IMG/VR virus record: IMGVR_UViG_3300030098_007301
Coordinates: 99,966 to 163,965 of that record
Origin: a virus
Length of the DNA: 64,000 nt
Direction: 5' to 3' (one strand)
In this document: positions 22,953 to 45,592 of the stretch, in pieces
How the letters are laid out: every line of letters begins with the position of its first letter
Numbering within the stretch: position 1 is the first letter of the stretch
Notes under the pieces: generated by a model
Seen by the model: the letters and a program-made list of their open reading frames with translations, nothing else
Database searches by the model: none
Told to the model about the DNA's origin: nothing
Made by a program: the position numbers and the translations under genes

Positions 22953-24054
22953 TTAAAACTTCTTCCTCACTAATACCCATTATACGAGATTTTATATCTT
23001 CCATAGAACTAAGCCTTTCTATTTCTGAAGATATATTTTTCTTGCGTATTTCAGCTATCTTTATCATTTTATTACGAGACTCCTCGTCTTTCCAAAGTTC
23101 TACAAGGTTTAGTATAGACGCTGACTCTTGTAAAACCTTGCTTAACCTCTGGCTCCTTTTCTCCTTCAACTCGTTAAGGAGTTTAGTCTGCCTATTGACA
23201 CATTGATTGTATTCAGTTTGCGCAGTATTGATCGCCTCCACTAAGCTCATAGCCATCCTGCGGCCTTCTGTGTCTTCTGCGTTTTGATCTAATAAAGTCT
23301 GGAGTCTCTCTACTCTTCTTTGGATATTCGAAGCTATAACTACTTCCGCCGATAAAACAATGTACTGATCTACTTCTTCTTGGGAGAGATCTGATTTGTC
23401 CCACGTATATCTCACAAAGCTACTCTCAAATAATTCCCTATCAGTCTCTACTGCGTAAGTACTTATCTGATGAAGAAATCTAAAGGTATGCATATAAGCA
23501 ATTAAAGTGCTCATATTCTTTTTTATCTTTGGGGTTATTTTATCTTTATCTATTCCATTATGAACATACTTGTTGACCCTTACTATCGCTCTTGATTCTG
23601 ATTTAGGAGGAGTATAGCCTCCCTCTACAGGAACGTCATCATTACTATCTGAATATTTAATTTGATTAGGTAGGGTGTTGATAAACTCCGCTACGACCTT
23701 ATATCTTAAATCTAAAGCTGAAATTTTATTGTCTTCGAAGATTAACCGAGCCATGTCCATTGGCTTCATGGCGCTACAATTATTTGAAATGAATTCTTTT
23801 TGGTCTTCGTTAAGTTCTACTTTTTCTTTTGGGTAATATTTATTAGTGACTTTAGCTTCTAAGCTTTTTTCTGCCAAAAACTTTTTAACAGCCCTCCCAT
23901 ATTTAGATCTTCCGTCCTTCATCTCCTCTGGAACATCAGGGAAGACTAGAGCTATAAGCTCCTTGACGTAAGGTGGATCATCTCCTCTTCTATTCCATTC
24001 TTCTAATATAGCTAATTCTTGATCCTTGTTTAAACTTATATTTTTATTACTCAT
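22945..24054 (-). CDS. Hypothetical coiled-coil protein (possible terminase small subunit)
   Basis: 369 aa helical protein with C-terminal coiled coil, two genes upstream of terL; function inferred from position only. Confidence 0.4.
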   Translation of the reverse strand: MSNKNISLNKDQELAILEEWNRRGDDPPYVKELIALVFPDVPEEMKDGRSKYGRAVKKFLAEKSLEAKVTNKYYPKEKVELNEDQKEFISNNCSAMKPMDMARLIFEDNKISALDLRYKVVAEFINTLPNQIKYSDSNDDVPVEGGYTPPKSESRAIVRVNKYVHNGIDKDKITPKIKKNMSTLIAYMHTFRFLHQISTYAVETDRELFESSFVRYTWDKSDLSQEEVDQYIVLSAEVVIASNIQRRVERLQTLLDQNAEDTEGRRMAMSLVEAINTAQTEYNQCVNRQTKLLNELKEKRSQRLSKVLQESASILNLVELWKDEESRNKMIKIAEIRKKNISSEIERLSSMEDIKSRIMGISEEEVLNG

Positions 24055-24734
24055 AGTATTTCTATCTCGCCGCTAGCTATAATCTTTTTGACTTTTAAGA
24101 TAATTGATTTTTTTACATTTTTTATTTGTTTGTAGCCCGGAACTCTATTTTTCTCATTAGTCTTATACCCCATTAAAGTAGCAGCATCTTCTTCAGACAT
24201 GTTGTCGATGTATAAAGCTTTATAAATTTTCCACTCGCTAGACTTAAGAATTTCTTTCATTTTTTCGTTAAGCTTTTCCATTAATGCAAAAATGTCTATA
24301 TCGCTATATTCAGCAGCGTTAATTTCTATTTCGTGGTCGTTTATGGAAACTGGGAGTTTTGCGTCATAGGCTTGTTTTCTCGTCTTCATCCAATTTGCAA
24401 AAAGAGGGCATGCTTCTGATTGTCTGCCGTATATGTAACACAAATCACCCGACTCAGCAGCAGCGCATTTCAAACAAGGTCGACAATAATTTCCATAGTT
24501 GTTACGGATTAAATTTTTTATCTGATTAGATATAATCCTGTTTATCCATGGATTAAGCGGCTTCTGTGGGTCGTAAAGATGCCACTTTTTAAATATATGA
24601 ATTCTTAGAATTTGTGAGACATCATCAAAATCCATCCACGAGAGCGCGGTCAAATTCCATTTGGATTTTCTTTTTTTTATCTCTGCATCTATTTGTTCTA
24701 TATGGTCTTCAAATTTTAGCTTACGTTTCGGCAT
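24051..24734 (-). CDS. Phage RNA polymerase sigma factor-like protein
   Basis: Region-2-like DFDDVSQ...KKWHLYDP.KPL.PWINRIISNQIKNLIR; region-4-like LKSSEWKIY...MSEEDAATLMG; Cys-rich insert between them. Confidence 0.7.
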   Translation of the reverse strand: MPKRKLKFEDHIEQIDAEIKKRKSKWNLTALSWMDFDDVSQILRIHIFKKWHLYDPQKPLNPWINRIISNQIKNLIRNNYGNYCRPCLKCAAAESGDLCYIYGRQSEACPLFANWMKTRKQAYDAKLPVSINDHEIEINAAEYSDIDIFALMEKLNEKMKEILKSSEWKIYKALYIDNMSEEDAATLMGYKTNEKNRVPGYKQIKNVKKSIILKVKKIIASGEIEIL

Positions 24735-35274: not shown

Positions 35275-35303
35275 TTGACTTTTCGCGCTAGTTATGGTAT
35301 AAT
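35275..35303 (+). promoter_or_regulatory. Near-consensus sigma70 promoter with no adjacent ORF
   Basis: TTGACT-17-TATAAT with extended TG, pointing into repeat element 1. Confidence 0.6.
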
Positions 35304-35370: not shown

Positions 35371-35447
35371 TAAGTCGTTGACTATCAATGACTTAGGCCT
35401 TCGGCGCCCTGCGCGCGGGTCGTAAGTCGTTGATTACCAGTGACTTA
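35371..35447. repeat. Paired 25-bp palindrome element 1 (IHF-consensus boxes)
   Basis: TAAGTCGTTGACTATCAATGACTTA, 27-bp GC-rich spacer, TAAGTCGTTGATTACCAGTGACTTA. Confidence 0.9.
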
Positions 35448-35538
35448 CGTATCTGAAAACCTCCATTTTTCGAAAGAACCGTGCCAAATTCGGGTAAAAA
35501 ATAAAAATAAAAAAAATGAAAAAAATCACTTTTTAGGC

Positions 35539-35566
35539 TTGCGTTTTTCTGTGGCTGTGTTATACT
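35539..35566 (+). promoter_or_regulatory. Early sigma70-type promoter
   Basis: TTGCGT-16-TATACT-10 nt-ATG. Confidence 0.65.
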
Positions 35567-35576
35567 GTTCCCAGTT

Positions 35577-35732
35577 ATGAGAGATACGATTCAAGTTGAA
35601 GAGGTTTTCGAGTCCAGCACTAAGATGGTTTCCTGCACTTGTTGCGGGTGCGGCGAGCAGCACCACATCGATCACGATGAGGCCGCCGAATGGCACAATC
35701 TTGAAAATTTCATGTGCTGGGAGTGTGAATAA
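35577..35732 (+). CDS. 51-aa zinc-ribbon mini-protein (not in ORF track)
   Basis: MRDTIQVEEVF...CCGC...CWECE; own promoter. Confidence 0.7.
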   Translation: MRDTIQVEEVFESSTKMVSCTCCGCGEQHHIDHDEAAEWHNLENFMCWECE

Positions 35733-35734
35733 AA

Positions 35735-35869
35735 ATGAGTGATAATATAAAATCTTTTGGTGGTGCGCTGCTACGTCAAGCGCAGATGAAAGAATGGAAA
35801 GCAATCCCTGAAGCCGAACGCCCCACATGGGAGCAGTTTAAGCGCGGATTAAAAAAGAAAAAAAAGTGA
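35735..35869 (+). CDS. 44-aa mini-protein (not in ORF track)
   Basis: MSDNIKSFGGALLRQ...KKKKK; fills the gap between a stop and the next promoter. Confidence 0.5.
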   Translation: MSDNIKSFGGALLRQAQMKEWKAIPEAERPTWEQFKRGLKKKKK

Positions 35870-35879
35870 GTTTTAAGGG

Positions 35880-35907
35880 TTGACTTTTTCCAAAAATCTG
35901 ATAAGAT
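35880..35907 (+). promoter_or_regulatory. Early sigma70-type promoter
   Basis: TTGACT-16-TAAGAT-10 nt-ATG. Confidence 0.7.
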
Positions 35908-35917
35908 AATTCCCGTT

Positions 35918-36151
35918 ATGAGAGATATGAAAACCTACACGTTGTATTGGAAAAACGAAGACACCAACAGGGTGAGCAGCAAGGACTTCACCAGCGAACC
36001 CGGTGTTGACCATTCGGCAATGGATAAGGCTTTGGAGCTGGCCCAAGAGGCTGACACCAATATGTGGCCTTGGATTCTAGAAGAGGACGGTTGCACCGTT
36101 GCCCACGGTTGGGGCGGTGATATGCTGGGAGCCTACCGTTTCCAAGGTTAA
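35918..36151 (+). CDS. Early small acidic protein (MRD family)
   Basis: GTTATGAGAGAT start with own promoter. Confidence 0.75.
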   Translation: MRDMKTYTLYWKNEDTNRVSSKDFTSEPGVDHSAMDKALELAQEADTNMWPWILEEDGCTVAHGWGGDMLGAYRFQG

Positions 36152-36160
36152 AAATAGTTG

Positions 36161-36188
36161 TTGACTTTTCCTGAAATTCTGATATACT
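36161..36188 (+). promoter_or_regulatory. Early sigma70-type promoter
   Basis: TTGACT-16-TATACT-10 nt-ATG. Confidence 0.75.
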
Positions 36189-36198
36189 TTTTTCCGTT

Positions 36199-36393
36199 AT
36201 GAGAGATACGTTTGATAACTTAAGTTGCGAAGAGGTTTTCGAGTTGAACGCGGTTTGTGGCCAATGGCAACAAGAGGCCACTGAGTACATCAAGCCCGCC
36301 CAAAAAGCCGAGCTTGCGGAGCGCCAGCGCAAGGCCGCCGCCGAGATGTTTTGGTTCATCCAAAAACGCCGCCAGCAAGGGGATTGGTTCTAA
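36199..36393 (+). CDS. Early small protein with SCEEVFELNA motif
   Basis: MRD start, own promoter, motif shared with 38988 and 39527. Confidence 0.75.
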   Translation: MRDTFDNLSCEEVFELNAVCGQWQQEATEYIKPAQKAELAERQRKAAAEMFWFIQKRRQQGDWF

Positions 36394-36409
36394 TAAAAAA
36401 ACCAAGTCA

Positions 36410-36486
36410 TAAGTCGTTGAACATCAATGACTTAGGGCCTCAGGGGAGGGCGCCCAAAACGTAAGTCGTTGTCAATCAGTGACTTA
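36410..36486. repeat. Paired palindrome element 2
   Basis: TAAGTCGTTGAACATCAATGACTTA-27-TAAGTCGTTGTCAATCAGTGACTTA. Confidence 0.9.
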
Positions 36487-36597
36487 CGACTTTAAAAATC
36501 AAAAAAAATGACTTTTTAGGATGGGTTTCCGTGCCAACCTGTGCGAATTATTAAAAAAACTTTTTTGAATAAAAATAAAAAAAATGACTTTTTAGGG

Positions 36598-36625
36598 TTG
36601 CAATTTTCTGAAGCTGTGATATACT
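36598..36625 (+). promoter_or_regulatory. Early sigma70-type promoter
   Basis: TTGCAA-16-TATACT-10 nt-ATG. Confidence 0.7.
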
Positions 36626-36635
36626 GTTTTGCGTT

Positions 36636-36806
36636 ATGAGGGAAACCTTAAAAGAAAACAAAAAGTTGGTCTGCCAAGTATGTCAGAGAGAAGACGGAGC
36701 CAAGAGCGAATGGGAAGGCACAATCGAAGTTTGGGAGTGGTGGAATCCATGCGACCACGGTACAATCTGCGACGAATGCCACGAAGACATGATCGACGAA
36801 AGGTAA
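36636..36806 (+). CDS. 56-aa zinc-finger mini-protein (not in ORF track)
   Basis: MRETLKENKKLVCQVC...ICDECHED; own promoter. Confidence 0.7.
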   Translation: MRETLKENKKLVCQVCQREDGAKSEWEGTIEVWEWWNPCDHGTICDECHEDMIDER

Positions 36807-36825
36807 AAAAAGTTAAAAATAGTTG

Positions 36826-36854
36826 TTGACTTTTCACCTAAAGTATGATTTAAT
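36826..36854 (+). promoter_or_regulatory. Early sigma70-type promoter
   Basis: TTGACT-17-TTTAAT-10 nt-ATG. Confidence 0.65.
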
Positions 36855-36864
36855 AGACGGAGTT

Positions 36865-37017
36865 ATGAGAGACAAGAAGCAAATAAAAGAAGCGGCCAAG
36901 AAGGTTTGGAAAAACTATTCTATAATGACACTCAACGGTAACACCTACTTCATCAACGAAGACCGGAAACACCGCCGCCGTCAACTGTCTGGATACTATG
37001 GAAAAAATCCAAAATAG
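36865..37017 (+). CDS. Early small basic protein (MRD family)
   Basis: Start MRDKKQ, 10 nt after the -10 box. Confidence 0.65.
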   Translation: MRDKKQIKEAAKKVWKNYSIMTLNGNTYFINEDRKHRRRQLSGYYGKNPK

Positions 37018-37020
37018 TTG

Positions 37021-37048
37021 TTGACTTTTCAAAAAATTCTGATATACT
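37021..37048 (+). promoter_or_regulatory. Early sigma70-type promoter
   Basis: TTGACT-16-TATACT-10 nt-ATG. Confidence 0.75.
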
Positions 37049-37058
37049 AATTCCTGTT

Positions 37059-37340
37059 ATGAGAGATACGAATAAATTCTTAAACGCCACCTTCAAAGTG
37101 GAGAAGAACCCAACCTACACCGGCAATCACTACATGGCCCGTGTCAACCGAGTGTTGAGCAACACTTACCCGCTTGGTACAACTGAGCAGGAGATGATCG
37201 ACAAGTATCACAATCGCGTCGTGTTGGAAAAAGACATCGACGGAAACAAAGTGCTAGCCGGTGACATTCACCGTGTCGTTGAGGTTTCCTTTTACGAGGA
37301 TTCGATTGCCGATAATGACTTGAGAATCACACACGACTAA
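37059..37340 (+). CDS. Early hypothetical protein (MRD family)
   Basis: 93 aa with own promoter. Confidence 0.75.
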   Translation: MRDTNKFLNATFKVEKNPTYTGNHYMARVNRVLSNTYPLGTTEQEMIDKYHNRVVLEKDIDGNKVLAGDIHRVVEVSFYEDSIADNDLRITHD

Positions 37341-37393
37341 TGGCCGCGCTTACCTCAACAATAATTTTTTTAATACTTTTAACACTTTTCGTG

Positions 37394-37422
37394 TTGACTT
37401 ACCCGCAAAACTGATATATACT
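37394..37422 (+). promoter_or_regulatory. Early sigma70-type promoter
   Basis: TTGACT-17-TATACT-10 nt-ATG. Confidence 0.75.
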
Positions 37423-37432
37423 TTTTTCTGTT

Positions 37433-37651
37433 ATGAGAATTATAGACTACGCAAACGAAAACAAAATAGCCGAAGCCAAAGTCACAATCGCTGAAACTGA
37501 AGGCTCTCTGAATCACCTTGCAAACTCCACATACTTAACCGTTGAGGAAATGCGCGAAACCTGCAAGCGGCTTGCCGAACAACTGACCGAATCACGGGCG
37601 AAGATACACAACGCCATGCACGGTGAGCCAACCTCAATGGACGGAGAATAA
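37433..37651 (+). CDS. Early small helical protein
   Basis: 72 aa with own promoter. Confidence 0.7.
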   Translation: MRIIDYANENKIAEAKVTIAETEGSLNHLANSTYLTVEEMRETCKRLAEQLTESRAKIHNAMHGEPTSMDGE

Positions 37652-37655
37652 AAAA

Positions 37656-38138
37656 ATGAAAAAAATAATAATAACACTTTGCTTGGTTCCGGTTGCCTTA
37701 CAACTTTTTTTAATCGCTAACTCTGTTTATGCTTACGCTCACACACACAACAACAAAAGCCTCACCCGTGAGGAAAAAATCGTTGCCATCACTATACTGG
37801 CAGAAGCCAGAGGGGAAGGGGAAAAAGGAATGTATGCGGTGGGTGCTGTCATTGCTCAACGAGCATTTGAAAGAAAACAAACGCCCACAGAGGTATGCCT
37901 TAAAAAATGGCAATTTAGTTGTTGGAACGGCAAAAGATTAAAAGACCTTGAGCATTTGTTGAAAGTGCCACAGGCAAAATACGCCATCACCGTTGCAAAG
38001 AATGTGAAAACTTTAAGCCGCGAATATGTTGGATATGCTAACCACTATCATGCAACTTGGATGAAAAAACTACCTTACTGGGCCAAAGGTCAAAAGCCCG
38101 TCAAGGTTATAGGTCAACACGCTTTTTACAAACTATGA
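37656..38138 (+). CDS. SleB/Hydrolase_2 family cell wall hydrolase with N-terminal signal/anchor
   Basis: TILAEARGEG..GM.AV..VI..R, QFSCWN, HYHA, PYWA and IG.HAFY motifs. Confidence 0.85.
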   Translation: MKKIIITLCLVPVALQLFLIANSVYAYAHTHNNKSLTREEKIVAITILAEARGEGEKGMYAVGAVIAQRAFERKQTPTEVCLKKWQFSCWNGKRLKDLEHLLKVPQAKYAITVAKNVKTLSREYVGYANHYHATWMKKLPYWAKGQKPVKVIGQHAFYKL

Positions 38139-38320
38139 AAACCTTTAATCCATTTGATAAGCCAGAACTCCGTGAAAAATTTCAGCTAAAGCCTCGTGCC
38201 GTTGACACTATGGGAACCTTTGCTATGCCTGAGATTTTTAACTGGGACAAAAAAATCGGTGCGCCATTCTCCAATAAATCAAAATCAACCAACAGGCAAA
38301 AACCAAGAAAAAGAAAATGA
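38135..38320 (+). CDS. Small basic protein
   Basis: ATGA-coupled; ends KSTNRQKPRKRK. Confidence 0.5.
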   Translation: MKTFNPFDKPELREKFQLKPRAVDTMGTFAMPEIFNWDKKIGAPFSNKSKSTNRQKPRKRK

Positions 38321-38481
38321 AACAAAAAGCTAAAAATAGAAAACGGAAATTTACCACAGCAACCCAAAAGAAAAAGATTTATATGGATGCTAATTGCGAA
38401 ATCCCTGTCTCGGCGACCTACTTCGGCCCGCATACCCTAAAAGGACTCGGAAGGAAAAACTACGAAGGAGGGAATTACTAG
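38317..38481 (+). CDS. 54-aa basic mini-protein (not in ORF track)
   Basis: ATGA-coupled MKQKAKNRKRKF... Confidence 0.45.
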   Translation: MKQKAKNRKRKFTTATQKKKIYMDANCEIPVSATYFGPHTLKGLGRKNYEGGNY

Positions 38482-38483
38482 AA

Positions 38484-38630
38484 ATGAGCAGCAAGCCAAC
38501 TGGAGGCATGGGAGAGGGTAGTAGCTCCTGCATGGTTACTACAAAATGGACAACGGCAACGCGGCCAGCTTATAAAGGCAAACATCGAAAAGCAAAAGCT
38601 ACTAATCGACAAAAGCCAAAAAAGAGATAA
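38484..38630 (+). CDS. 48-aa basic mini-protein
   Basis: Starts 2 nt after the previous stop; ends KATNRQKPKKR. Confidence 0.45.
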   Translation: MSSKPTGGMGEGSSSCMVTTKWTTATRPAYKGKHRKAKATNRQKPKKR

Positions 38631-38703
38631 TTTTAACAAGGTATATAGTGTGCGGCAATGGGGAAAGCCGTCTTGTTATAAAAGACCCCAACTCTCATAA
38701 CAC

Positions 38704-38744
38704 CGCCCCGTCGAGACCTCGCATGCTCGGCGGGGCAATTTTTT
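38704..38744 (+). terminator. Intrinsic terminator
   Basis: GCCCCGTCGAG...CTCGGCGGGGC then T-run. Confidence 0.7.
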
Positions 38745-38781
38745 AATGTCAAGAAAAAAAGAATAAGTTTTTTCTATGTCG

Positions 38782-38858
38782 TAAGTTACTGAGTATCAAG
38801 GACTTAGGGCCTCGGCGCCCTGCGCGCAAGCGCTAAGTCACTGAATACCAATGACTTA
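38782..38858. repeat. Paired palindrome element 3
   Basis: TAAGTTACTGAGTATCAAGGACTTA-27-TAAGTCACTGAATACCAATGACTTA. Confidence 0.9.
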
Positions 38859-38949
38859 CGTTTTTAAAAGTGTTGTTTTTCAATAGGTTTTCATGCCAAG
38901 TTGGCGTAAAAATTAAAAATAAAAAAAATAAAAAAGTGAGTTTTTTCTG

Positions 38950-38977
38950 TTGACTTTTTCTGAGATTGTGATATGCT
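38950..38977 (+). promoter_or_regulatory. Early sigma70-type promoter
   Basis: TTGACT-16-TATGCT-10 nt-ATG. Confidence 0.7.
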
Positions 38978-38987
38978 CATTTCTGTT

Positions 38988-39167
38988 ATGAGAGATATGA
39001 TTACTTGTGAGGAGGTTTTCGGTTTGAACGCGGACGCTGTGGCTGCCCACGGCGAGGACGCATGGGTCGCCGGTGTGACCGTTGCCAACGGTTTCGATGG
39101 CGTCGAGGACGAGGCCGATGATCGGTGCTGGTGTAAGTTTTTTGAGTCATGCGCGGAATGCGCTTGA
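38988..39167 (+). CDS. Early acidic mini-protein with TCEEVFGLNA motif and C-terminal Cys cluster
   Basis: MRDMITCEEVF...CWC....CAEC. Confidence 0.7.
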   Translation: MRDMITCEEVFGLNADAVAAHGEDAWVAGVTVANGFDGVEDEADDRCWCKFFESCAECA

Positions 39168-39191
39168 CTTTTTTTTAAATTCTGGTAGACT
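39164..39191 (+). promoter_or_regulatory. Early sigma70-type promoter
   Basis: TTGACT-16-TAGACT-9 nt-ATG. Confidence 0.7.
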
Positions 39192-39200
39192 TTTTTTGTT

Positions 39201-39470
39201 ATGAGAGATATGTTTGATAATATGTACACGGTTCGGATCGCCAACTCTGGCGATGAGGCTGGTTTCCCGCGTTCTCACGATGGTCTGGAAAAGGCCATCA
39301 TGTTGGCCTCGCGTGAGGGTACTGAGGTCACCTTTGATGGTGATGTCGTGTGGCCGGAGGAGGAGCCGGATATGGATGAGTCCATGGACGGGGATTTTGA
39401 TTCCGCGATGGCCAGTGCCGGTTTCGGCACGGATGAGGATTACGGCTGCTACGGTGGCGATGAGTGGTAA
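39201..39470 (+). CDS. Highly acidic early protein
   Basis: MRD start; DESMDGDFDSAMASAGFGTDEDYG tail. Confidence 0.75.
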   Translation: MRDMFDNMYTVRIANSGDEAGFPRSHDGLEKAIMLASREGTEVTFDGDVVWPEEEPDMDESMDGDFDSAMASAGFGTDEDYGCYGGDEW

Positions 39471-39488
39471 AAAACTCATTTTTTTTTG

Positions 39489-39516
39489 TTGACTTTTTTT
39501 CTGATTCTGTTACTCT
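39489..39516 (+). promoter_or_regulatory. Early sigma70-type promoter
   Basis: TTGACT-16-TACTCT-10 nt-ATG. Confidence 0.6.
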
Positions 39517-39526
39517 TTTTTCTGTT

Positions 39527-39721
39527 ATGGGAATTATGAAATCATTATTCATGGAACTCTCCTGCGAGGAGGAGTTTGAGTTGAACGCGTGGTGTGATGA
39601 GCGTCGCGAGGCGGACATTGCCGCGCAGGACGCGGACATGGTCGCGGAGGAGATGGCCCGCCAGTCCGACGCGCTGATCGCCGAGGACGCCGCCCTCGAC
39701 CTGCTGATCGCCGCCGGTTAA
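39527..39721 (+). CDS. Early acidic mini-protein with SCEEEFELNA motif
   Basis: GTTATG start 10 nt after the -10 box. Confidence 0.7.
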   Translation: MGIMKSLFMELSCEEEFELNAWCDERREADIAAQDADMVAEEMARQSDALIAEDAALDLLIAAG

Positions 39722-39740
39722 TCAAAAACCGTGCCAAGTC

Positions 39741-39764
39741 ACCCCGCCAAGGCGGGGTTTTTTT
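39741..39764 (+). terminator. Intrinsic terminator
   Basis: ACCCCGCC-AA-GGCGGGGT then T-run. Confidence 0.75.
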
Positions 39765-39793
39765 ATTTTTTATTTTTTAGGATTTTGAAGTCG

Positions 39794-39869
39794 TAAGTCG
39801 TTGATAGTCAAGGACTTAGGGCCGCGGGCCTACCCCACCGTGCGTAAGTGACTGATAGTCAATGACTTA
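39794..39869. repeat. Paired palindrome element 4
   Basis: TAAGTCGTTGATAGTCAAGGACTTA-26-TAAGTGACTGATAGTCAATGACTTA. Confidence 0.9.
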
Positions 39870-39969
39870 CGTGTTTTTTTATTAATTTTTTTAAAAAAAT
39901 AATTTTAGAAAATTTTCAGAATATATTAAGAAGTTATTATTTATTATTTATTTAATCCTTATTTACTTC

Positions 39970-40149
39970 TTATTTAATCAGAATAAAATCAGAAATTTCT
40001 GTTACATGAATTCTTTTTTTCTTACACTTATCGCATGAGCCTTTACGCCATGTACCGCATCTAATAGTTATTTGAGGATCGCGGCTTTCTTTTTTCGCTG
40101 ATCTTATTTCTTTGCGTTGGGCTTTTGTCCCGCACTCATAACAAATCAT
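39970..40149 (-). CDS. 59-aa zinc-finger mini-protein (not in ORF track)
   Basis: MICYECG...CDKCKK; ATGA-coupled to 40146..40361. Confidence 0.55.
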   Translation of the reverse strand: MICYECGTKAQRKEIRSAKKESRDPQITIRCGTWRKGSCDKCKKKRIHVTEISDFILIK

Positions 40150-40361
40150 GAGAATATTTGATTAACTTGCGATTCTAATTTTTTAATATGAGAAATTACC
40201 TCAACCTTGCCAGCGTGGTTCTTTTTCCAGCGGCGAAAGTCTCTTTTGATTTCCTGCTTCAAGCCGCGAACAATTATTTCGCGAGTCTTGACCGCATCAA
40301 GTTTAATGCTGCGGGTTGCCTTTCTTTTCTCTGCCTTTCTTTGGGCGTGCTTAGTTTTCAT
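40146..40361 (-). CDS. Basic small protein
   Basis: 71 aa ORF, ATG in AT-rich context. Confidence 0.55.
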   Translation of the reverse strand: MKTKHAQRKAEKRKATRSIKLDAVKTREIIVRGLKQEIKRDFRRWKKNHAGKVEVISHIKKLESQVNQIFS

Positions 40362-40374
40362 TGTTATAAATTAA

Positions 40375-40710
40375 AAATGGTGGTTGGATTATTTGTATAC
40401 CAACACCTTTTCAGTTCCCGAGAAACAAAGTTTCTTATCAACCTACTTCGGACTCACCCACGTTTTCGCGCTGCCACTTGGCCGTTGTTACTTCCGCAGG
40501 TGCTACGTTACCCCCTTGGGAGGGATTATTCCGTCACACCGCCTCTCCCCGTCGAGAGAGGAAATTATTGAGTTGCTGCCGCACCACCAGCAGTAAAACG
40601 GGCGCGAGACAATCATGATCAAAAAACTCGCAGGGGTCTTTAACTCCGTCAACTCAAATTTTCAAAAAGCGTCTGGGTTGTTTTAAGTCAGCCCAGTCTG
40701 ACCCCCTTTT
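40375..40710. ncRNA. Candidate structured non-coding RNA
   Basis: About 440-nt intergenic gap with at least six stems, some nested; family not recognised. Confidence 0.3.
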
Positions 40711-40807
40711 TACTATGAAAGAAGAAACATAACATTGTTAGCTAACCTCCACTAACAGGGCACAAGATGAACACATACAAATAAATCCCCCGAAGGGAAA
40801 AGTTATC

Positions 40808-41077
40808 TTACTGCACTTGGGCAGCAGCGTCAACTACTTTTTTCGTCAACTGCGAATCTTGTAGTTTTTCGATAATCGTGTTAAGCATTACGCGCTGCTT
40901 GGCAACGGTTAGCTTGGTTTGATTAACGTTGAGATCCTCGGCCAACTCAACAAAGCCTAAAGCATCATTAATTTGCCTCAGTTCTGTGATAGCCTTGCTG
41001 CGAGTATCTTCGCGACGTTGAATCTCTGCTCTCCCCGCCTTCGTGCGGGCCTGTAGGTAATGCGCTGGAATATCCAT
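40808..41077 (-). CDS. Early helical protein
   Basis: Start MDIPAHY, 10 nt after the -10 box. Confidence 0.7.
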   Translation of the reverse strand: MDIPAHYLQARTKAGRAEIQRREDTRSKAITELRQINDALGFVELAEDLNVNQTKLTVAKQRVMLNTIIEKLQDSQLTKKVVDAAAQVQ

Positions 41078-41087
41078 CACTTGAAAT

Positions 41088-41116
41088 AGTATAGAACAGT
41101 CGGGGTACGCTGTCAA
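41088..41116 (-). promoter_or_regulatory. Early sigma70-type promoter
   Basis: TTGACA-17-TATACT-10 nt-ATG. Confidence 0.8.
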
Positions 41117-41532
41117 GCGTAATAAATGTTCATTGTCCCGTCTGCTGCTTTTTTGCAGACAACCCGTGCCGCTTTATGCAACGGCGTGCCCTTGTGGTAA
41201 TCCACAAACGTCTCAACCTTGTAGGGGTTGTAAAAGGCCTGTGCGAACTTGTATCCGCGCGGAAAATACTGAGCCTTATCAAAATTGACATCAGTAAACT
41301 TGCCGACCACATAAGCGTGGACGTTCTTCTGCTTCTCCTTCAGAACCCTTGCACGGCCTGCTGGCTGCACCCGAAACTTGCAATCGCGCAAGTCAACGCT
41401 GTCCGCATGACAATATAACTTGCCATCCTGTGCATCGCATATAGTCCAACACTTGTAAGTGAGGTTGCGATACACCTTGACGCGATCTGGAGCGATGCTC
41501 GGTGCGTCTTCCCATGAAATGTACTTCCTCAT
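41113..41532 (-). CDS. Conserved phage hypothetical protein
   Basis: VKVYRNL...F.V..AGR.RVLKEKQKNVHAYV.G...YNPYK...F pattern seen in many phages. Confidence 0.75.
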   Translation of the reverse strand: MRKYISWEDAPSIAPDRVKVYRNLTYKCWTICDAQDGKLYCHADSVDLRDCKFRVQPAGRARVLKEKQKNVHAYVVGKFTDVNFDKAQYFPRGYKFAQAFYNPYKVETFVDYHKGTPLHKAARVVCKKAADGTMNIYYA

Positions 41533-41542
41533 AACGGAGATA

Positions 41543-41571
41543 ATTAAATCATACTTTTCGCGTATGGTCAA
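41543..41571 (-). promoter_or_regulatory. Early sigma70-type promoter
   Basis: TTGACC-17-TTTAAT-10 nt-ATG. Confidence 0.65.
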
Positions 41572-41596
41572 CCCCTTTTTTTTATTTTTTTTCCTG

Positions 41597-41625
41597 TTGA
41601 CAAGTTACCCCGCATAGTGCATACT
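41597..41625 (+). promoter_or_regulatory. Early sigma70-type promoter (divergent)
   Basis: TTGACA-17-CATACT-10 nt-ATG. Confidence 0.7.
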
Positions 41626-41635
41626 TTTCTTGGTT

Positions 41636-41890
41636 ATGAAAATGAAAGACATTAAAAACGGTTCAATATACTTCAACGTCAAAAAGAATCGCCCTGAGCG
41701 CGTAATATCTAATAACTTTAGTAAGTCGCGAGTCGTAACTGAATACCACAATAGAAATCAGACTGCGGTTCCTGCTAGATATTTGCGTTTAGCTAATAAT
41801 ATCGAAGTAGAAAACTACTTGGATAAAAAAGGAAACTTTATCACTTCTTTCTTTGGGAAATTATTCACCCCGAAGAAGGTGAACGCTTGA
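41636..41890 (+). CDS. Early small protein (SH3-like beta pattern)
   Basis: 84 aa with own promoter. Confidence 0.65.
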   Translation: MKMKDIKNGSIYFNVKKNRPERVISNNFSKSRVVTEYHNRNQTAVPARYLRLANNIEVENYLDKKGNFITSFFGKLFTPKKVNA

Positions 41891-42013
41891 GGGGGTTGAA
41901 TTACCTTTAAGCGTCCCGCTTTGGATTGTTTCGCCTTGGTTCTGCGTTTCCCAAGGTTTTTTTGCCAAAGCGGGAGAATCTCCTGAGACAGTTATACGTC
42001 TCCTCATAACACT

Positions 42014-42041
42014 AACCCGCGGCCTACGCCGCGGGTTTTTT
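42014..42041 (+). terminator. Intrinsic terminator
   Basis: AACCCGCGGC-CTAC-GCCGCGGGTT then T-run. Confidence 0.8.
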
Positions 42042-42047
42042 ATGTCG

Positions 42048-42125
42048 TAAGTGCTTGATGGTCAGTGACTTAAGGGCGCCGCGCCCCCCCGCGCCGGACC
42101 TAAGTCGTTGGTAATCAGTGACTTA
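42048..42125. repeat. Paired palindrome element 5
   Basis: TAAGTGCTTGATGGTCAGTGACTTA-28-TAAGTCGTTGGTAATCAGTGACTTA. Confidence 0.9.
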
Positions 42126-42277
42126 CGTTTTTAAAAAGTCATTTTTTTCGAAAGAATCGTGCCAAGTTCGGACTAAATAAAAAAATATTTTTTTTTAAAT
42201 AATGATGATTTAGGGGTTGCATTACTTCCGAAAGTGTGAGATGATTAATTCGTTCTGAGGAAGAACTAAAAATTGTT

Positions 42278-43171
42278 ATGGCTAGAAATACAAGACCAAC
42301 AAGCGACCAGTTCGACTACAGAGTCGAGCAGTCGCCTCTGTATGACCGGCACGGCAAGCCCGTGAAGGTCGGGGGATCTCCCATTTTTGGGAATTTCCGC
42401 ACAGACAATAATGTCTGCTTGGGTACGTCTACTGAGGCGTACGAGATCGTCAACAACGATTCAGTTGTTGAAGTTGTTGAAGATGCCTTCGGTGCTGCCG
42501 GTATGGGCGACTTCGAGCGCGAAATTGTAGTTGCACGCGATGGTGCGCGTTTCTACGGGGTTTACGACTTCCCGCAAGTCGAACGTCAAGTTGCCAATGT
42601 CGGCGATGTTGTTTCCCTACGTCTAACCCTCAACAACTCCTTCGACCGGAGTTGCGGTTTGAACTGGGCCATCGGGCTGCTCCGCAAGGTTTGCTCCAAT
42701 GGTATGTGTTCGCTGGTGGCCGACACCAACGTCACCAAAAAGCACAGCTCAAAGCTGGATCTGTCCTTCATCAAGGAAGGAATCAACGCATCGGTCGAAA
42801 AGTTCGACGCGTCTATTGAGGCTTTTAAAAACCTCAGCAATCGTGAGATCACCCAAAAAGAGGGCGGTCTTATTCTGGACAACCTCGCCATCAAGAAGGT
42901 GCTTTCCGAGTCGCTTCGGGACTCCATCCAGATGGTCTGGGATTCGCCTTCCTTCGGGGAGGATCAAGGTCGCAACCTGTACAACCTGTACAACGCGACC
43001 ACGGAACACCTCACCCGCGAGGTGCAACCGACTCGGTTTGAGTACGCCAACCGCGTAAACCGCAACGTGCTGACGCACTTGTCGCGGGCGAGACAGGACG
43101 CGAACCACTTCGCCAAGCTGACGCTGCCGACTCCTGAGAAGGAGAAGGCCGCCGAGGTCGTGGCTCTGTAA
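42278..43171 (+). CDS. DUF932 family phage/plasmid protein
   Basis: RTD...LG.....Y.IV.N, L.NSFD.S, R.VCSNG, KH and NLYNLYNA.TE motifs. Confidence 0.8.
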   Translation: MARNTRPTSDQFDYRVEQSPLYDRHGKPVKVGGSPIFGNFRTDNNVCLGTSTEAYEIVNNDSVVEVVEDAFGAAGMGDFEREIVVARDGARFYGVYDFPQVERQVANVGDVVSLRLTLNNSFDRSCGLNWAIGLLRKVCSNGMCSLVADTNVTKKHSSKLDLSFIKEGINASVEKFDASIEAFKNLSNREITQKEGGLILDNLAIKKVLSESLRDSIQMVWDSPSFGEDQGRNLYNLYNATTEHLTREVQPTRFEYANRVNRNVLTHLSRARQDANHFAKLTLPTPEKEKAAEVVAL

Positions 43172-43184
43172 GGGGAACACCTGC

Positions 43185-43216
43185 AACCCCCGCCCGAAAG
43201 GGTGGGGGTTTTTTTT
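43185..43216 (+). terminator. Intrinsic terminator
   Basis: AACCCCCGCCC-GAAA-GGGTGGGGGTT then T-run. Confidence 0.8.
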
Positions 43217-43245
43217 ATCGAAAAAACTTGACAAAAAAAGAGGCC

Positions 43246-43322
43246 TAAGTGACTGACTATCAATGACTTAGGGGGCGCCGGGGTAGGCGCGCGGTCGTAA
43301 GTGCTTGGTATTCAATGACTTA
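43246..43322. repeat. Paired palindrome element 6
   Basis: TAAGTGACTGACTATCAATGACTTA-27-TAAGTGCTTGGTATTCAATGACTTA. Confidence 0.9.
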
Positions 43323-43350
43323 CGACTTGAAAAAACTCAGATTTAAAAAA

Positions 43351-43425
43351 TGGACGCGAGGGTCGGAATCGAACCGACGAATAAGACTTTTGCAGAGTCC
43401 CGCCTTACCACTTGGCTACCCCTCG
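43351..43425 (-). tRNA. tRNA-Cys (GCA)
   Basis: TAGCCAAGTGGTAAGGC D arm, GGACT-CTGCAAA-AGTCT anticodon arm, GTCGG-TTCGATT-CCGAC T arm, U73 and encoded CCA; one acceptor-stem mismatch. Confidence 0.85.
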
Positions 43426-43446
43426 CCGTTATTATTTGATTATTAT

Positions 43447-43668
43447 TTAATCAGACTTATTTGGGTTGGCAAAATTCTGATTATATAAACGCTCACTATT
43501 TGGTAACATATGCCTCCGGTCACATTTCTTACCTAAGACATTTACTTTTCTTTTGCAAAAAGTTAAAAAGCCTTTGCTTATTGCTGGTATCATTCCCTCT
43601 AGGCTCTTTTTAGAAACTCCAAAAGGTTCTTCGGTTTGGTGTGTATCGTTATTATTATCTCGTTGCAT
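43447..43668 (-). CDS. Hypothetical protein
   Basis: 73 aa overlapping the upstream stop. Confidence 0.4.
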   Translation of the reverse strand: MQRDNNNDTHQTEEPFGVSKKSLEGMIPAISKGFLTFCKRKVNVLGKKCDRRHMLPNSERLYNQNFANPNKSD

Positions 43669-44077
43669 CGTAATCTGTTAAATTTTCTGCTGTTATCTTT
43701 CCAAGGTTAAAAAAATCATATTTATTCTGCGTAACCAAAAAGGTCATTGGTTTGAACTCTGCTAATCTTAACTGTGCATACTCTCTGGCGAAGGGCATTA
43801 TGCCGCCCTTGGTTCCTTTATATAATGACAAGTTCCCTTCTTGCTTTATTGCATTAGCTGACATTTCGACTAATGAATCCTGCAATTTTTTTTGGGTAGT
43901 CCAAAAATATCCCAAATAAGGTTTTACATCTTCATTCGACCAAATTAAATCGTCACCCGATGTTGCTTTCCAATTCCAGAATCCCCAGTAGTGGTTAATA
44001 ATTTCATTTTTATCATCACCACGAATTCCGACTGCTATCTTTTTCTCTCCGTCTCTCTGTATAACGTATTCTATCAT
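43655..44077 (-). CDS. Hypothetical protein
   Basis: 140 aa from MIEYVIQ, Trp-rich. Confidence 0.6.
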   Translation of the reverse strand: MIEYVIQRDGEKKIAVGIRGDDKNEIINHYWGFWNWKATSGDDLIWSNEDVKPYLGYFWTTQKKLQDSLVEMSANAIKQEGNLSLYKGTKGGIMPFAREYAQLRLAEFKPMTFLVTQNKYDFFNLGKITAENLTDYDATR

Positions 44078-44148
44078 TCTCTCTCCTGTTGATAAATTAG
44101 CCAAAGACCCAAAGCGATCCCCACGACAAAAATCATTCCCTCCACAGG

Positions 44149-44895
44149 TCAAATCGTAGCTTTTGCATTGTATCCTGTAAAGCCTTTTTTCTTATTCGCG
44201 GAAAGGGCTTTGCTCGCTTCGCTCCCTGCTGGCTGACTGCCATGAATCACCAAAGCGAAATCATCCGAACCAGAGATAGCCAAGTCGTCGGTGTGGTCAA
44301 CGTCCAAGCCGAGAGCCTTTGCCTCATCTGTGGAGAAAAACACCTTTGCGCTTTTAACCATTGTCGAGGGAATTAAATTGTCATACTTTCCACCACGCGA
44401 GCAGGTAAAAACAAAATTCTTTGGCAAGCCGCCGTTTTTCTTAACATAGTCCAGTAAAAACTTGATGCTTTTAGTATAGGAATAAAAAACGATATTCGGA
44501 AAGAAACTCGCCACTTTCATCCATGCGTTGAAATAAAGCTGTGAAAAGTAATCGCCGCCAATGTGGACACGCAACGTGCCTCCCCGCCTCAATCCAGTTT
44601 CTTTTATACTGTTGACTATCAAATCAACAATCTGGCTAATGGTCTTACCCTTTAACAAATCAAAATTATCCCAACGTGTCTTGCGTACATTGGGCCGTCT
44701 GGCTTCGTCCATCGCAGCATAACAGCGAAACGCTTGGCCATCAACCGGCGTTTGTTTGTCGGTGATTTTGCCTGTCTCCCTGTGTGCAAAAGTCAAACAA
44801 CTTTTCGCGCCGGGGCAGGTGTGGCCGCTTGGTAACGAGTAGTGCCAAATGCCCTTGAGCTTGGCGTTTTCAAATGTGAATTTAAGTAGTCCCAT
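44149..44895 (-). CDS. Gene product 88-like (radical-SAM-like Cys motif) protein
   Basis: SLPSGHTCPGA..C...CYA, LRVHIGGDYFS..Y...W and FYSYTKS. Confidence 0.75.
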   Translation of the reverse strand: MGLLKFTFENAKLKGIWHYSLPSGHTCPGAKSCLTFAHRETGKITDKQTPVDGQAFRCYAAMDEARRPNVRKTRWDNFDLLKGKTISQIVDLIVNSIKETGLRRGGTLRVHIGGDYFSQLYFNAWMKVASFFPNIVFYSYTKSIKFLLDYVKKNGGLPKNFVFTCSRGGKYDNLIPSTMVKSAKVFFSTDEAKALGLDVDHTDDLAISGSDDFALVIHGSQPAGSEASKALSANKKKGFTGYNAKATI

Positions 44896-44906
44896 AACTG
44901 AAAAAA

Positions 44907-44935
44907 ATAATACTTTGTTTAATGGTTCAGGTCAA
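44907..44935 (-). promoter_or_regulatory. Early sigma70-type promoter
   Basis: TTGACC-17-TATTAT-11 nt-ATG. Confidence 0.65.
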
Positions 44936-45174
44936 CCAAAAAGTTTGTCCCATCCTTTCGGACTGGTTCCAGAAATTAGAAACTCCCTGTCGCCGCTATC
45001 TAATGACTTTAAAGCCATTATACTATTGGTTTGACGCATCCGAAAAAGTTCCGGCCCTTTAACTGTGACGCTATACTCCTCCCCCGTAACCCTGCACGGG
45101 CCGGTGAAAGTGTAAGTGTGGCCCTGCTCGCCGTATGCCTCCGTGTACTGTAGTTTGTCAATATACCTTTCCAT
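44932..45174 (-). CDS. Conserved small phage protein
   Basis: C.VTG...L...DREFLISG.SP..WD.LF motif. Confidence 0.7.
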   Translation of the reverse strand: MERYIDKLQYTEAYGEQGHTYTFTGPCRVTGEEYSVTVKGPELFRMRQTNSIMALKSLDSGDREFLISGTSPKGWDKLFG

Positions 45175-45184
45175 AACGCCGCTA

Positions 45185-45213
45185 ATCCTATGCTAAAAAA
45201 GGTTCCCCGTCAA
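45185..45213 (-). promoter_or_regulatory. Early sigma70-type promoter
   Basis: TTGACG-17-TAGGAT-10 nt-ATG. Confidence 0.7.
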
Positions 45214-45285
45214 CCCCAAAAAACATAAAAATAAAATTTTTATTTTACTTGACAAGCGATTTTTTTTGTGATTAAAAAAGGTACC

Positions 45286-45362
45286 TAAGTCGTTGATAAT
45301 CAGTGACTTAGGGGTCGCGCGCCCATGCTCCGCGTCGTAAGTCGTTGATAGTCAATGGGTTA
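45286..45362. repeat. Paired palindrome element 7
   Basis: TAAGTCGTTGATAATCAGTGACTTA-27-TAAGTCGTTGATAGTCAATGGGTTA. Confidence 0.9.
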
Positions 45363-45560
45363 CGCACTTTTTTTTCTTAATTTTTAAATTTTACTTTTTT
45401 AATGTTTTAATATCACTATATCTATCTATACCCTATACTTATACCTTTATTTGTTATTTATTTATTTCGGGTTCATTATTTCGCAATCACTTATTTGTAT
45501 TTTATTTATTTACTATTTATTATTTCGCAATTATTATTTGGCAATTTTATATTCGCAGGC

Positions 45561-45592
45561 AAAAAAAATCCCCCACTCTTTCGAGTGGGGGA
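45561..45592 (-). terminator. Intrinsic terminator
   Basis: TCCCCCACTC-GAAA-GAGTGGGGGA then T-run on the minus strand. Confidence 0.8.

Follow-up and report, generated by a model that had tools for sequence, protein, structure and literature searches.

Paired palindromic boxes near early promoters of an uncultured marine phage: candidate sites for an IHF/HU-family protein

Seven paired boxes in the early region

The stretch analysed here (the window) comprises 64,000 nucleotides, positions 99,966 to 163,965 of the IMG/VR virus record IMGVR_UViG_3300030098_007301, and belongs to a tailed uncultured marine phage with a genome of roughly 150-170 kb. Its early-type region carries 14 copies of a 25-bp palindromic box grouped two by two into seven elements, e1 to e7, each consisting of two boxes separated by a GC-rich spacer. 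These pairs had been noticed in an earlier inspection of the letters alone (the sequence-only reading), which took each box for a two-way site for integration host factor (IHF). All 14 boxes were found again, with 0-3 mismatches to the consensus given then and 0 matches in 100 shuffles, and a pattern search revealed no further box anywhere in the 64-kb window. The elements and their neighbours are listed below, d being the distance from the edge of the second box to the start of the promoter -35.

35371-35447, e1: boxes 35371-35395 and 35423-35447; 27-nt spacer, 85% GC; + strand promoter 92 bp to the right
35448-35539, + strand: conserved linker from e1 to its promoter, containing A-tracts and a CCGTGCCAA motif; also present after e2, e3 and e5 (alignment; repeat families D4 and D6)
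36410-36486, e2: boxes 36410-36434 and 36462-36486; spacer 74% GC; starts 16 nt past the stop of the open reading frame (ORF) 36199-36393; next -35 at 36598, d = 111
38782-38858, e3: boxes 38782-38806 and 38834-38858; spacer 85% GC; terminator-like site 38717-38735 upstream; promoter -35 at 38950, d = 91
39794-39869, e4: boxes 39794-39818 and 39845-39869; 26-nt spacer, 85% GC; strong + strand terminator 39741-39758 upstream; promoter-like site 39962-39989, d = 92
42048-42125, e5: boxes 42048-42072 and 42101-42125; 28-nt spacer, 93% GC; + strand terminator 42014-42037, ending 10 nt before the element; downstream, TTGCAT-N17-GATGAT at 42217-42245, d = 91, ahead of a DUF932 gene
43246-43322, e6: boxes 43246-43270 and 43298-43322; spacer 89% GC; convergent junction between a + strand terminator (43185-43210) and the 3' end of a tRNA-Cys (43351-43425, - strand)
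45286-45362, e7: boxes 45286-45310 and 45338-45362; spacer 81% GC; on the left, - strand promoter-like sites 45255-45228 (d = 30) and 45213-45185 (d = 72); on the right, - strand terminator 45592-45569

The box takes the form YAA-N4-YTGA-TWA-TCAR-N4-TTR and is flanked on both sides by CG (conserved in 65-83%). The whole element, of ~110 bp, is symmetric about a central dyad, running from a T-rich flank through box, GC core and box to an A-rich flank. The start-to-start distances measure 52, 52, 52, 51, 53, 52 and 52 bp for e1 to e7, within the 51-53 bp given earlier. The spacers (26-28 nt, 74-93% GC against ~41-47% GC for the surrounding region) also agree with the first description, as do the A/T-tract flanks, present both in the window and in the alignment of the family collected from related phages. 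Family-wide, spacers average 82% GC and flanks 41% GC, and the spacer cores are lineage-specific (GGCGCC in the window, CCGGGCCGGGCC in locus L158). All seven elements are intergenic, and their positions relative to terminators, promoters and the 3' end of the tRNA-Cys place them, as had been proposed, between transcription units defined by promoters or terminators. Strong + strand terminators end 10-46 nt upstream of e3, e4, e5 and e6.

The tailed-phage genes of the window encode a large terminase, a weak portal match, rIIA, PhoH, a sigma-70-family protein and a fibre protein of 3,791 aa with an S74 chaperone domain. In BLAST searches of cultured phages, neither a near relative of the window phage nor a copy of the element was found. 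Terminase relatives in IMG/VR amount to 230 contigs, of which 80 (84-99% identical) were kept; retrieved contigs all come from marine metagenomes. Two of these are near-complete, G001 (144 kb) and G002 (170 kb). The region of the boxes is organised as + strand cassettes (35.5-40.0 kb) followed by units on both strands (40-45.4 kb). Other features are:

24051-24734: sigma-70-family phage gene
35509-40024, + strand: ten repeated promoter-leader cassettes (repeat families D1, D2 and D9; consensus promoter scan)
40373-40559, - strand: manA RNA motif (RF01745), matched over its full length at 47.1 bits (E = 1e-9), below the gathering score of 55.2 bits
41113-41571, - strand: L5 gp82-like protein

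Each cassette displays TTGACT-N16/17-TGnTATACT followed by GTTATGAGAGATA, with the start codon ~5 nt past the predicted transcript start, and the encoded proteins share a conserved N-terminus, MRD(T/M). The relatives vary in these cassettes by gain, loss and relocation. Because of the manA match on the - strand, the + strand ORFs listed at 40373-40559 may be non-genes. The gp82-like gene is the commonest gene near elements (20 of 83 loci), and in SPO1-like Bacillus phages the homologues lie within the terminal repeats. The sequence TTGACT-17-TATAAT, preceded by a TG, forms a near-consensus promoter (35275-35303, + strand) that has no ORF behind it and reads into e1. The CCGTGCCAA linker motif lies at 35470-35495, 36530-36545, 38890-38905 and 42150-42170 and is also found in three other loci (L137, L138 and L169). 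Read on the - strand, the motif at e1 and e5 is TGGCACG-N4-TTTCG, which resembles a sigma-54 -24/-12 element and points toward the paired boxes. AT-rich tandem-like repeats (TTATTTGT...ATTATTTCGCAAT) occupy 45447-45548, within the 200 bp of non-coding DNA that separate e7 from the - strand terminator 45569-45592.

Box geometry, promoter phasing and duplex constraint

Perfect matches to the IHF consensus WATCARNNNNTTR occur in 10 of the 14 boxes in at least one orientation, with one mismatch in the other four, as counted earlier. The whole window contains 22 perfect matches, 11 of them inside boxes. In the 34-bp IHF site, WATCAA begins near the centre and TTR follows four bp further, while the prolines of IHF intercalate at two AA steps 9 bp apart (PMC1874591). 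The TTR lies six bp from the nearest kink (PMC5829579). In the box, the dyad (position 13) is the W of WATCAR, from which WATCAR-N4-TTR runs outward on each strand. Exactly 9 bp separate the steps T8-T9 and A17-A18, with TTR 6 bp beyond the kink. Since the dyad coincides with this W, one dimer centred on it would meet the consensus in both halves. This single dyad-centred site replaced our initial assumption of two offset IHF sites per box. The canonical site is asymmetric, with an A/T-rich 5' half; that of the box is instead a second copy of the consensus.

Conservation follows the predicted kinks: T9 and A17 are invariant, 79% of the boxes have T at position 8 and 85% have A at position 18. 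When elements are oriented by their promoter, the family consensus of all four arms is WATCAA(C/G)GACTTACG, and the arms adjoining the GC spacer are the best conserved. In 71 bacterial copies (see below), retrieved with a pattern that leaves positions 12-14 free, these positions are T (87%), A or T (100%) and A (89%). This T-W-A centre supplies the 'WA' of WATCAR in both orientations without being forced by the search. The geometric part of the IHF proposal is therefore stronger than first stated, and binding by a protein of the IHF/HU family (DNABII) is what the sequence suggests.

Searches of G001 and G002 revealed no DNABII gene above the Pfam cut-off, which makes a host protein the simplest source. 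The only trace of a phage-encoded HU/IHF was a sub-threshold 13.7-bit match in G002; it was set aside, the corresponding ORFs of the window being without Pfam match. Other binders were compared by eye through their consensus sequences. Fis does not fit (except for the GTGCTT...AAGCAC variants), the spacing is 3 bp too short for FNR, and the box does not fit Fur, LexA, CRP, CtrA, matS, tetO or lambda boxA. Judged in the same manner, it contains no workable -35/-10 pair and was rejected as a promoter.

Promoters were then mapped within 300 bp of 224 elements, a stringent promoter being defined by agreement with at least 10 of the 12 positions of the E. coli-type sigma-70 consensus. They point outward in 105 cases and inward in 28, peak 20-60 bp from the box edge and lie on both sides of only 1 of 65 promoter-associated elements. 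The linker between element and promoter often consists of phased A-tracts. Box-edge to -35 distances, taken in 54 non-redundant cases, cluster near 9, 19-20, 30, 40, 49, 62, 70, 78 and 90 bp. A Rayleigh test on these 54 cases gives R = 0.50 at 10.25 bp (p about 1.5e-6) and no signal at 8, 9, 12 or 13 bp. Restriction to distinct distances (n = 32) leaves p = 0.002, and 0 of 5000 Monte-Carlo sets reached the observed value at any period of 7-14 bp. In the window, d equals 92, 111, 91, 92 and 91 bp for e1 to e5, e7 serving - strand promoters on its left. These distances (91-92 and 111), like those in the Stenotrophomonas phage DLP6 discussed below, fall within about 1-3 bp of the ~10.25-bp phase. 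A protein bound on one helix face relative to RNA polymerase would produce such phasing. Of the functions listed in the sequence-only reading, that of activator is thus supported as regards the link with promoters, both by their outward orientation and by the quantised distance.

The positions of the elements might also suggest topological devices, such as gyrase or topoisomerase sites or supercoil barriers between heavily transcribed units. Positive supercoils should accumulate after terminators and at convergent junctions, which is where several elements lie (e6 for the latter), the whole element has dyad symmetry, and the repetitive extragenic palindromes (REPs) and bacterial interspersed mosaic elements (BIMEs) bind gyrase. 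However, strong conservation falls on the bases of the IHF consensus and the promoter phasing points to a bound protein facing RNA polymerase, which leaves a topological role highly improbable.

The earlier preference for a double-stranded protein site over an RNA hairpin was borne out by a covariation check, which detected none across 448 boxes. Watson-Crick pairing reaches 41% at positions 6/20, 27% at 7/19 and 66% at 8/18, slightly below that of shuffled columns (z = -2.9, -2.6 and -3.1). Pairing of box 1 with box 2 is no better than pairing within a box in this set, and in the 71 bacterial copies the variable N4 positions pair in 27-48% only, with no compensatory change. These data argue against a selected hairpin and for a constraint on particular bases of duplex DNA. 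The spacer was also rejected as a hairpin, its folding energy having a mean z of 0.01 against shuffles.

A structure acting in single-stranded RNA (or DNA) after transcription, as a processing hairpin, transcript-end stabiliser or bidirectional terminator, has some observations in its favour. When single-stranded, the elements would form stable folds from both strands (-30 to -42 kcal/mol, z = -3.6 to -6.8), as expected of any palindrome; e1 and e2 are probably transcribed (promoter at 35275, no terminator before e2); and the doublet of phage DLP6 lies between a stop codon and a terminator hairpin. G-U pairs and mismatches in the window elements stand at 16/16 on the + strand and 6/26 on the - strand, a strand-specific bias that is gone across the family. 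Besides the lack of covariation, four of the seven elements lie directly downstream of a strong terminator, and the family flank consensus, T-rich on the 5' side and A-rich on the 3' side (mixed in the window), is the wrong way round for a terminator U-tract. No Rfam family match overlaps an element at E <= 1, and a 10-bp phasing with the -35 would be meaningless for an RNA. An RNA model is very unlikely for these elements.

Related phages, phage DLP6 and bacterial genomes

Seven pairs are present in G002 and eight in G001, each set being contained within one ~11-kb region, and e5 to e7 are syntenic with elements of both relatives. The element is present in hundreds of contigs from related phages; a scan of IMG/VR retrieved 97 loci, and the collected loci contain 224 distinct pairs. 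Their spacing is 50 bp in 123 cases, 53 bp in 44, 52 bp in 30, 51 bp in 13, 49 bp in 6 and 60 bp in 5, and contigs binned into bacterial metagenome-assembled genomes (MAGs) add spacings of 43 and 55 bp. These bins span many phyla, and the short element-bearing contigs they contain are probably phage DNA. Within most contigs the spacing is constant to ~1 bp, and it varies between lineages. The 'five helical turns, in phase' of the sequence-only reading hold for the lineage of the window and fail for the relatives (mostly 50 bp, but also 43, 49, 53, 55 and 60). The five-turn spacing is consequently a property of this lineage rather than of the element. Within contigs, 78% of the elements share the majority orientation, a weak tendency from which nothing is drawn. 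In some relatives, four to six boxes follow one another in a row with 50- and 60-bp steps (L164 12191-12610, L170 2684-2880).

A half-site of the box arm, ATCAACGACTTA, recurs upstream of promoters, in tandem pairs, in Stenotrophomonas phage DLP6 (KU682439.2), which was identified by a literal string search of papers and not by BLAST. ATCAA(C/G)(C/G)ACTTA occurs there at 27 forward and 3 reverse sites (control 0), and tandem AAATCAACGACTTA pairs with a 25-bp period occupy 15 intergenic sites. For the 13 clearest of these, the -35 is 11-12, 21-22 or 32 bp past the second motif. Most sites continue with a GC-rich hairpin and then TTTACT-N16-TATAAT, the T-run of the hairpin overlapping the -35. 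The DLP6 doublets resemble the elements of the window in their identical 11-mer, intergenic pairs, quantised promoter distance and the GC-rich DNA that follows, but they are tandem half-sites of 25-bp period without a palindromic partner and are spread over 110 kb. The available passages of the DLP6 genome paper place 22 of 25 'phage promoters' in groups of two before gene clusters and name them from a repeat-finding program only (PMC5349666). These passages do not quote the motif sequence; we infer that the doubled motif is the one mapped here. The earlier statement that no description of this arrangement was known must be qualified to that extent, since a doubled motif fitting the mapped doublets had been listed in that paper; otherwise, no description was found in the literature searched.

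The occurrence of the same 11-mer in an unrelated phage is also compatible with operators for another sequence-specific dimeric protein, either early or virion phage protein or host protein, which would act as a dimer of dimers to switch or insulate early promoters. The palindromic symmetry speaks for it, as does the conservation of bases that the IHF consensus does not specify (A21, C22 and the CG flanks). The spacing, strictly constant per lineage (50, 53 or 55 bp), together with the lineage-specific spacer cores, suggests co-evolution with a dedicated factor, and promoter phasing suits any upstream regulator. However, no candidate binder was found among the window proteins common to DLP6 (SleB-like, PhoH, terminase, DenV-like glycosylase and an 80-aa protein). 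The 173-aa protein assigned to a 'DNA binding protein' PHROG is in fact the DenV-like pyrimidine-dimer glycosylase and has no match to a solved structure; the 80-aa protein, whose gene adjoins e7, is without recognisable fold. In addition, early promoters must fire before phage proteins exist, and the match to IHF geometry (9-bp kinks, unforced T-W-A centre) would be a coincidence. Such operators are therefore a possible but rather unlikely explanation.

Species-representative bacterial genomes were scanned with the pattern TAA-N4-YTGA-N3-TCAR-N4-TTA. A Microscillaceae MAG contains 4,812 copies and a WOR-3 MAG 247 (controls 0), while 300 other Bacteroidota genomes contain 0-15 copies each, a background level. 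In those stretches that were read, nearly every copy lies between genes; a number of them are arranged as doublets, 46-48 bp apart and with an AT-rich spacer.

Comparison of the window with G001 and G002 reveals indels and permuted modules, the modules between elements being permuted in G002. In G002, one element combines the e4 flank on its left with the e2 flank on its right. Among the 60 ends of BLAST alignments located at 34.0-46.5 kb, 13 fall at elements (6% of the region) and 30 at promoter-leader repeats (16%), both classes being enriched ~3-fold, although conserved islands create such ends by construction. Exchange of cassettes specifically at the elements, one of the roles envisaged at first, is weakened by this comparison, breakpoints being at least as frequent at the promoter-leader repeats. 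Elements can be junctions, and so can promoter repeats.

The bacterial copies and the breakpoints together raise the possibility of intergenic repeats, similar to REPs, REPINs (REP doublets) or miniature inverted-repeat transposable elements (MITEs), which would spread or recombine with the IHF-like site as a passenger, like that of the BIME/RIB elements of E. coli, and whose main effect would be to provide homology for module shuffling. The Microscillaceae and WOR-3 copies, mostly intergenic and often in doublets 46-48 bp apart, are in line with this, as are the permuted modules of G002, with at least one element combining flanks of two window elements, and the 13 of 60 breakpoints on 6% of the region. 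Nevertheless, ~15 positions of the box are fixed while the N positions and most of the spacer vary freely within a genome, a pattern that points to selection at individual sites and not to recent copying. Three genomes agree in the number and order of the elements and in their restriction to 11 kb, and the promoter-leader repeats are equally enriched in breakpoints. Hairpin-preserving covariation, which has been reported for REPINs, is absent, and selfish spread leaves the helical promoter phasing unexplained. Repeats of this kind are distinctly unlikely to account for the elements.

A proposed architectural module and its known counterparts

We give a probability of about 0.5 to the reading in which the elements are an architectural module upstream of promoters, with two sites for a DNABII protein. 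According to this proposal, which derives from sequence comparison, each element would be a double-stranded DNA platform offering two high-affinity sites for a DNABII dimer, most likely supplied by the host. One dimer would sit on each dyad, its prolines entering T8-T9 and A17-A18, 9 bp apart, with TTR contacts on both sides, and the GC-rich spacer may keep the protein in register and act as a stiff linker. The platform would lie in untranscribed DNA past a terminator. A strong sigma-70-like promoter would usually follow 10-110 bp downstream, with the platform on a constant helix face relative to it and phased A-tracts linking the two. The sharp bends may then shape the upstream DNA of early promoters, by activation or wrapping, and mark the boundaries of units. 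The protein involved, the bending and the effect on transcription are thus predicted, while the anatomy of the sequence, its conservation, the absence of covariation and the promoter phasing are observed.

Several observations weigh against this proposal. Bases that are free in the IHF consensus are conserved (A21 in 87% and C22 in 81%, partly imposed by the search pattern, as well as the CG flanks), and the ACGAC common to the unrelated phage DLP6 hints at a more specific protein. In the phage copies, the 'WA' positions are weakly conserved and the full consensus is perfect in only 8-31 of 65 copies per arm. With a 34-35-bp IHF site, two dimers could probably not both fit a DLP6 pair, whose spacing is 25 bp. 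For 155 of 220 elements there is no stringent promoter within 120 bp, the promoter scan detected no outward promoter near e6, and the ~10-bp quantisation could partly reflect gain or loss of whole A-tract units. The sporadic amplification in bacteria also fits a REP-like amplified element. As for the host, most well-defined genes of the window lack a Shine-Dalgarno sequence, and close terminases carry Zunongwangia or Flavobacteriales names in databases, which point to Flavobacteriia. To our knowledge, Flavobacteriia have no classical heterodimeric IHF. Yet the early promoters fit the E. coli sigma-70 consensus.

If the DNABII proposal is true, marine phages of a large and abundant group use a compact two-site DNA-bending module to organise the genes that they express first, and the DNA upstream of their promoters would be a clear example of an architecture locked to the helical phase. 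The proposal would also define a symmetric IHF-type site, making DNABII specificity outside enterics directly testable, lead to a reinterpretation of the DLP6 'phage promoters' and point to a bacterium whose intergenic DNA is saturated by the box. In practice, the motif marks early-region boundaries in uncultured phage contigs. A bolder and doubtful extension would make the symmetric box a 'super-site' bound by a DNABII homodimer and serving generally to punctuate genome architecture. In phages from several unrelated families, pairs of it joined by a rigid GC linker would form a double U-turn that boosts and insulates early promoters, and in some bacteria the site would have come to occupy almost all intergenic regions (one genome has ~4,800 copies).

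The element is related to two known kinds of sequence, IHF-assisted phage promoters and composite extragenic repeats carrying IHF sites. The E. coli IHF sites (WATCAANNNNTTR; the lambda H' site) contain the same consensus elements as the box, in the same order and with the same spacing and 9-bp kinks. The natural IHF sites of PMC1874591 are asymmetric, most of the consensus falling in the 3' half, whereas the box has it in both. Unlike E. coli sites, the boxes are paired around a GC spacer and have extra conserved bases (AC within N4, CG flanks), and the putative host of the window phage, unlike E. coli, may lack the heterodimeric IHF. In the IHF-assisted lambda pL and Mu Pe, the position upstream of a phage promoter resembles that of the elements here.

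In T4-type phages, the promoter-early stem-loop (PeSL) cassettes are small early genes with their own promoters, shuffled at repeats. The early region of the window likewise consists of small genes with a promoter each, and repeated regulatory sequences are the points at which these are reshuffled from one relative to another. It is the promoter-leader repeats that correspond to PeSL here; the paired boxes form a separate landmark, rarer and better conserved.

REP/REPIN doublets and the boxes are both intergenic imperfect palindromes, which form inverted doublets and can reach thousands of copies in one bacterial genome. The box differs in having no hairpin-keeping compensatory changes and free N positions, and the phage has 7-8 syntenic copies. 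In E. coli, BIME-1 (RIB/RIP) consists of two REP palindromes flanking an IHF site and is found at the ends of transcription units. Both RIB/RIP and the elements of the window are composite intergenic repeats located at unit ends that combine palindromes, GC-rich DNA and an IHF-type site. In the phage, however, the IHF-type sites are the palindromes, placed on either side of a GC core, and the 7-8 copies are syntenic, phased with promoters and without hairpin covariation.

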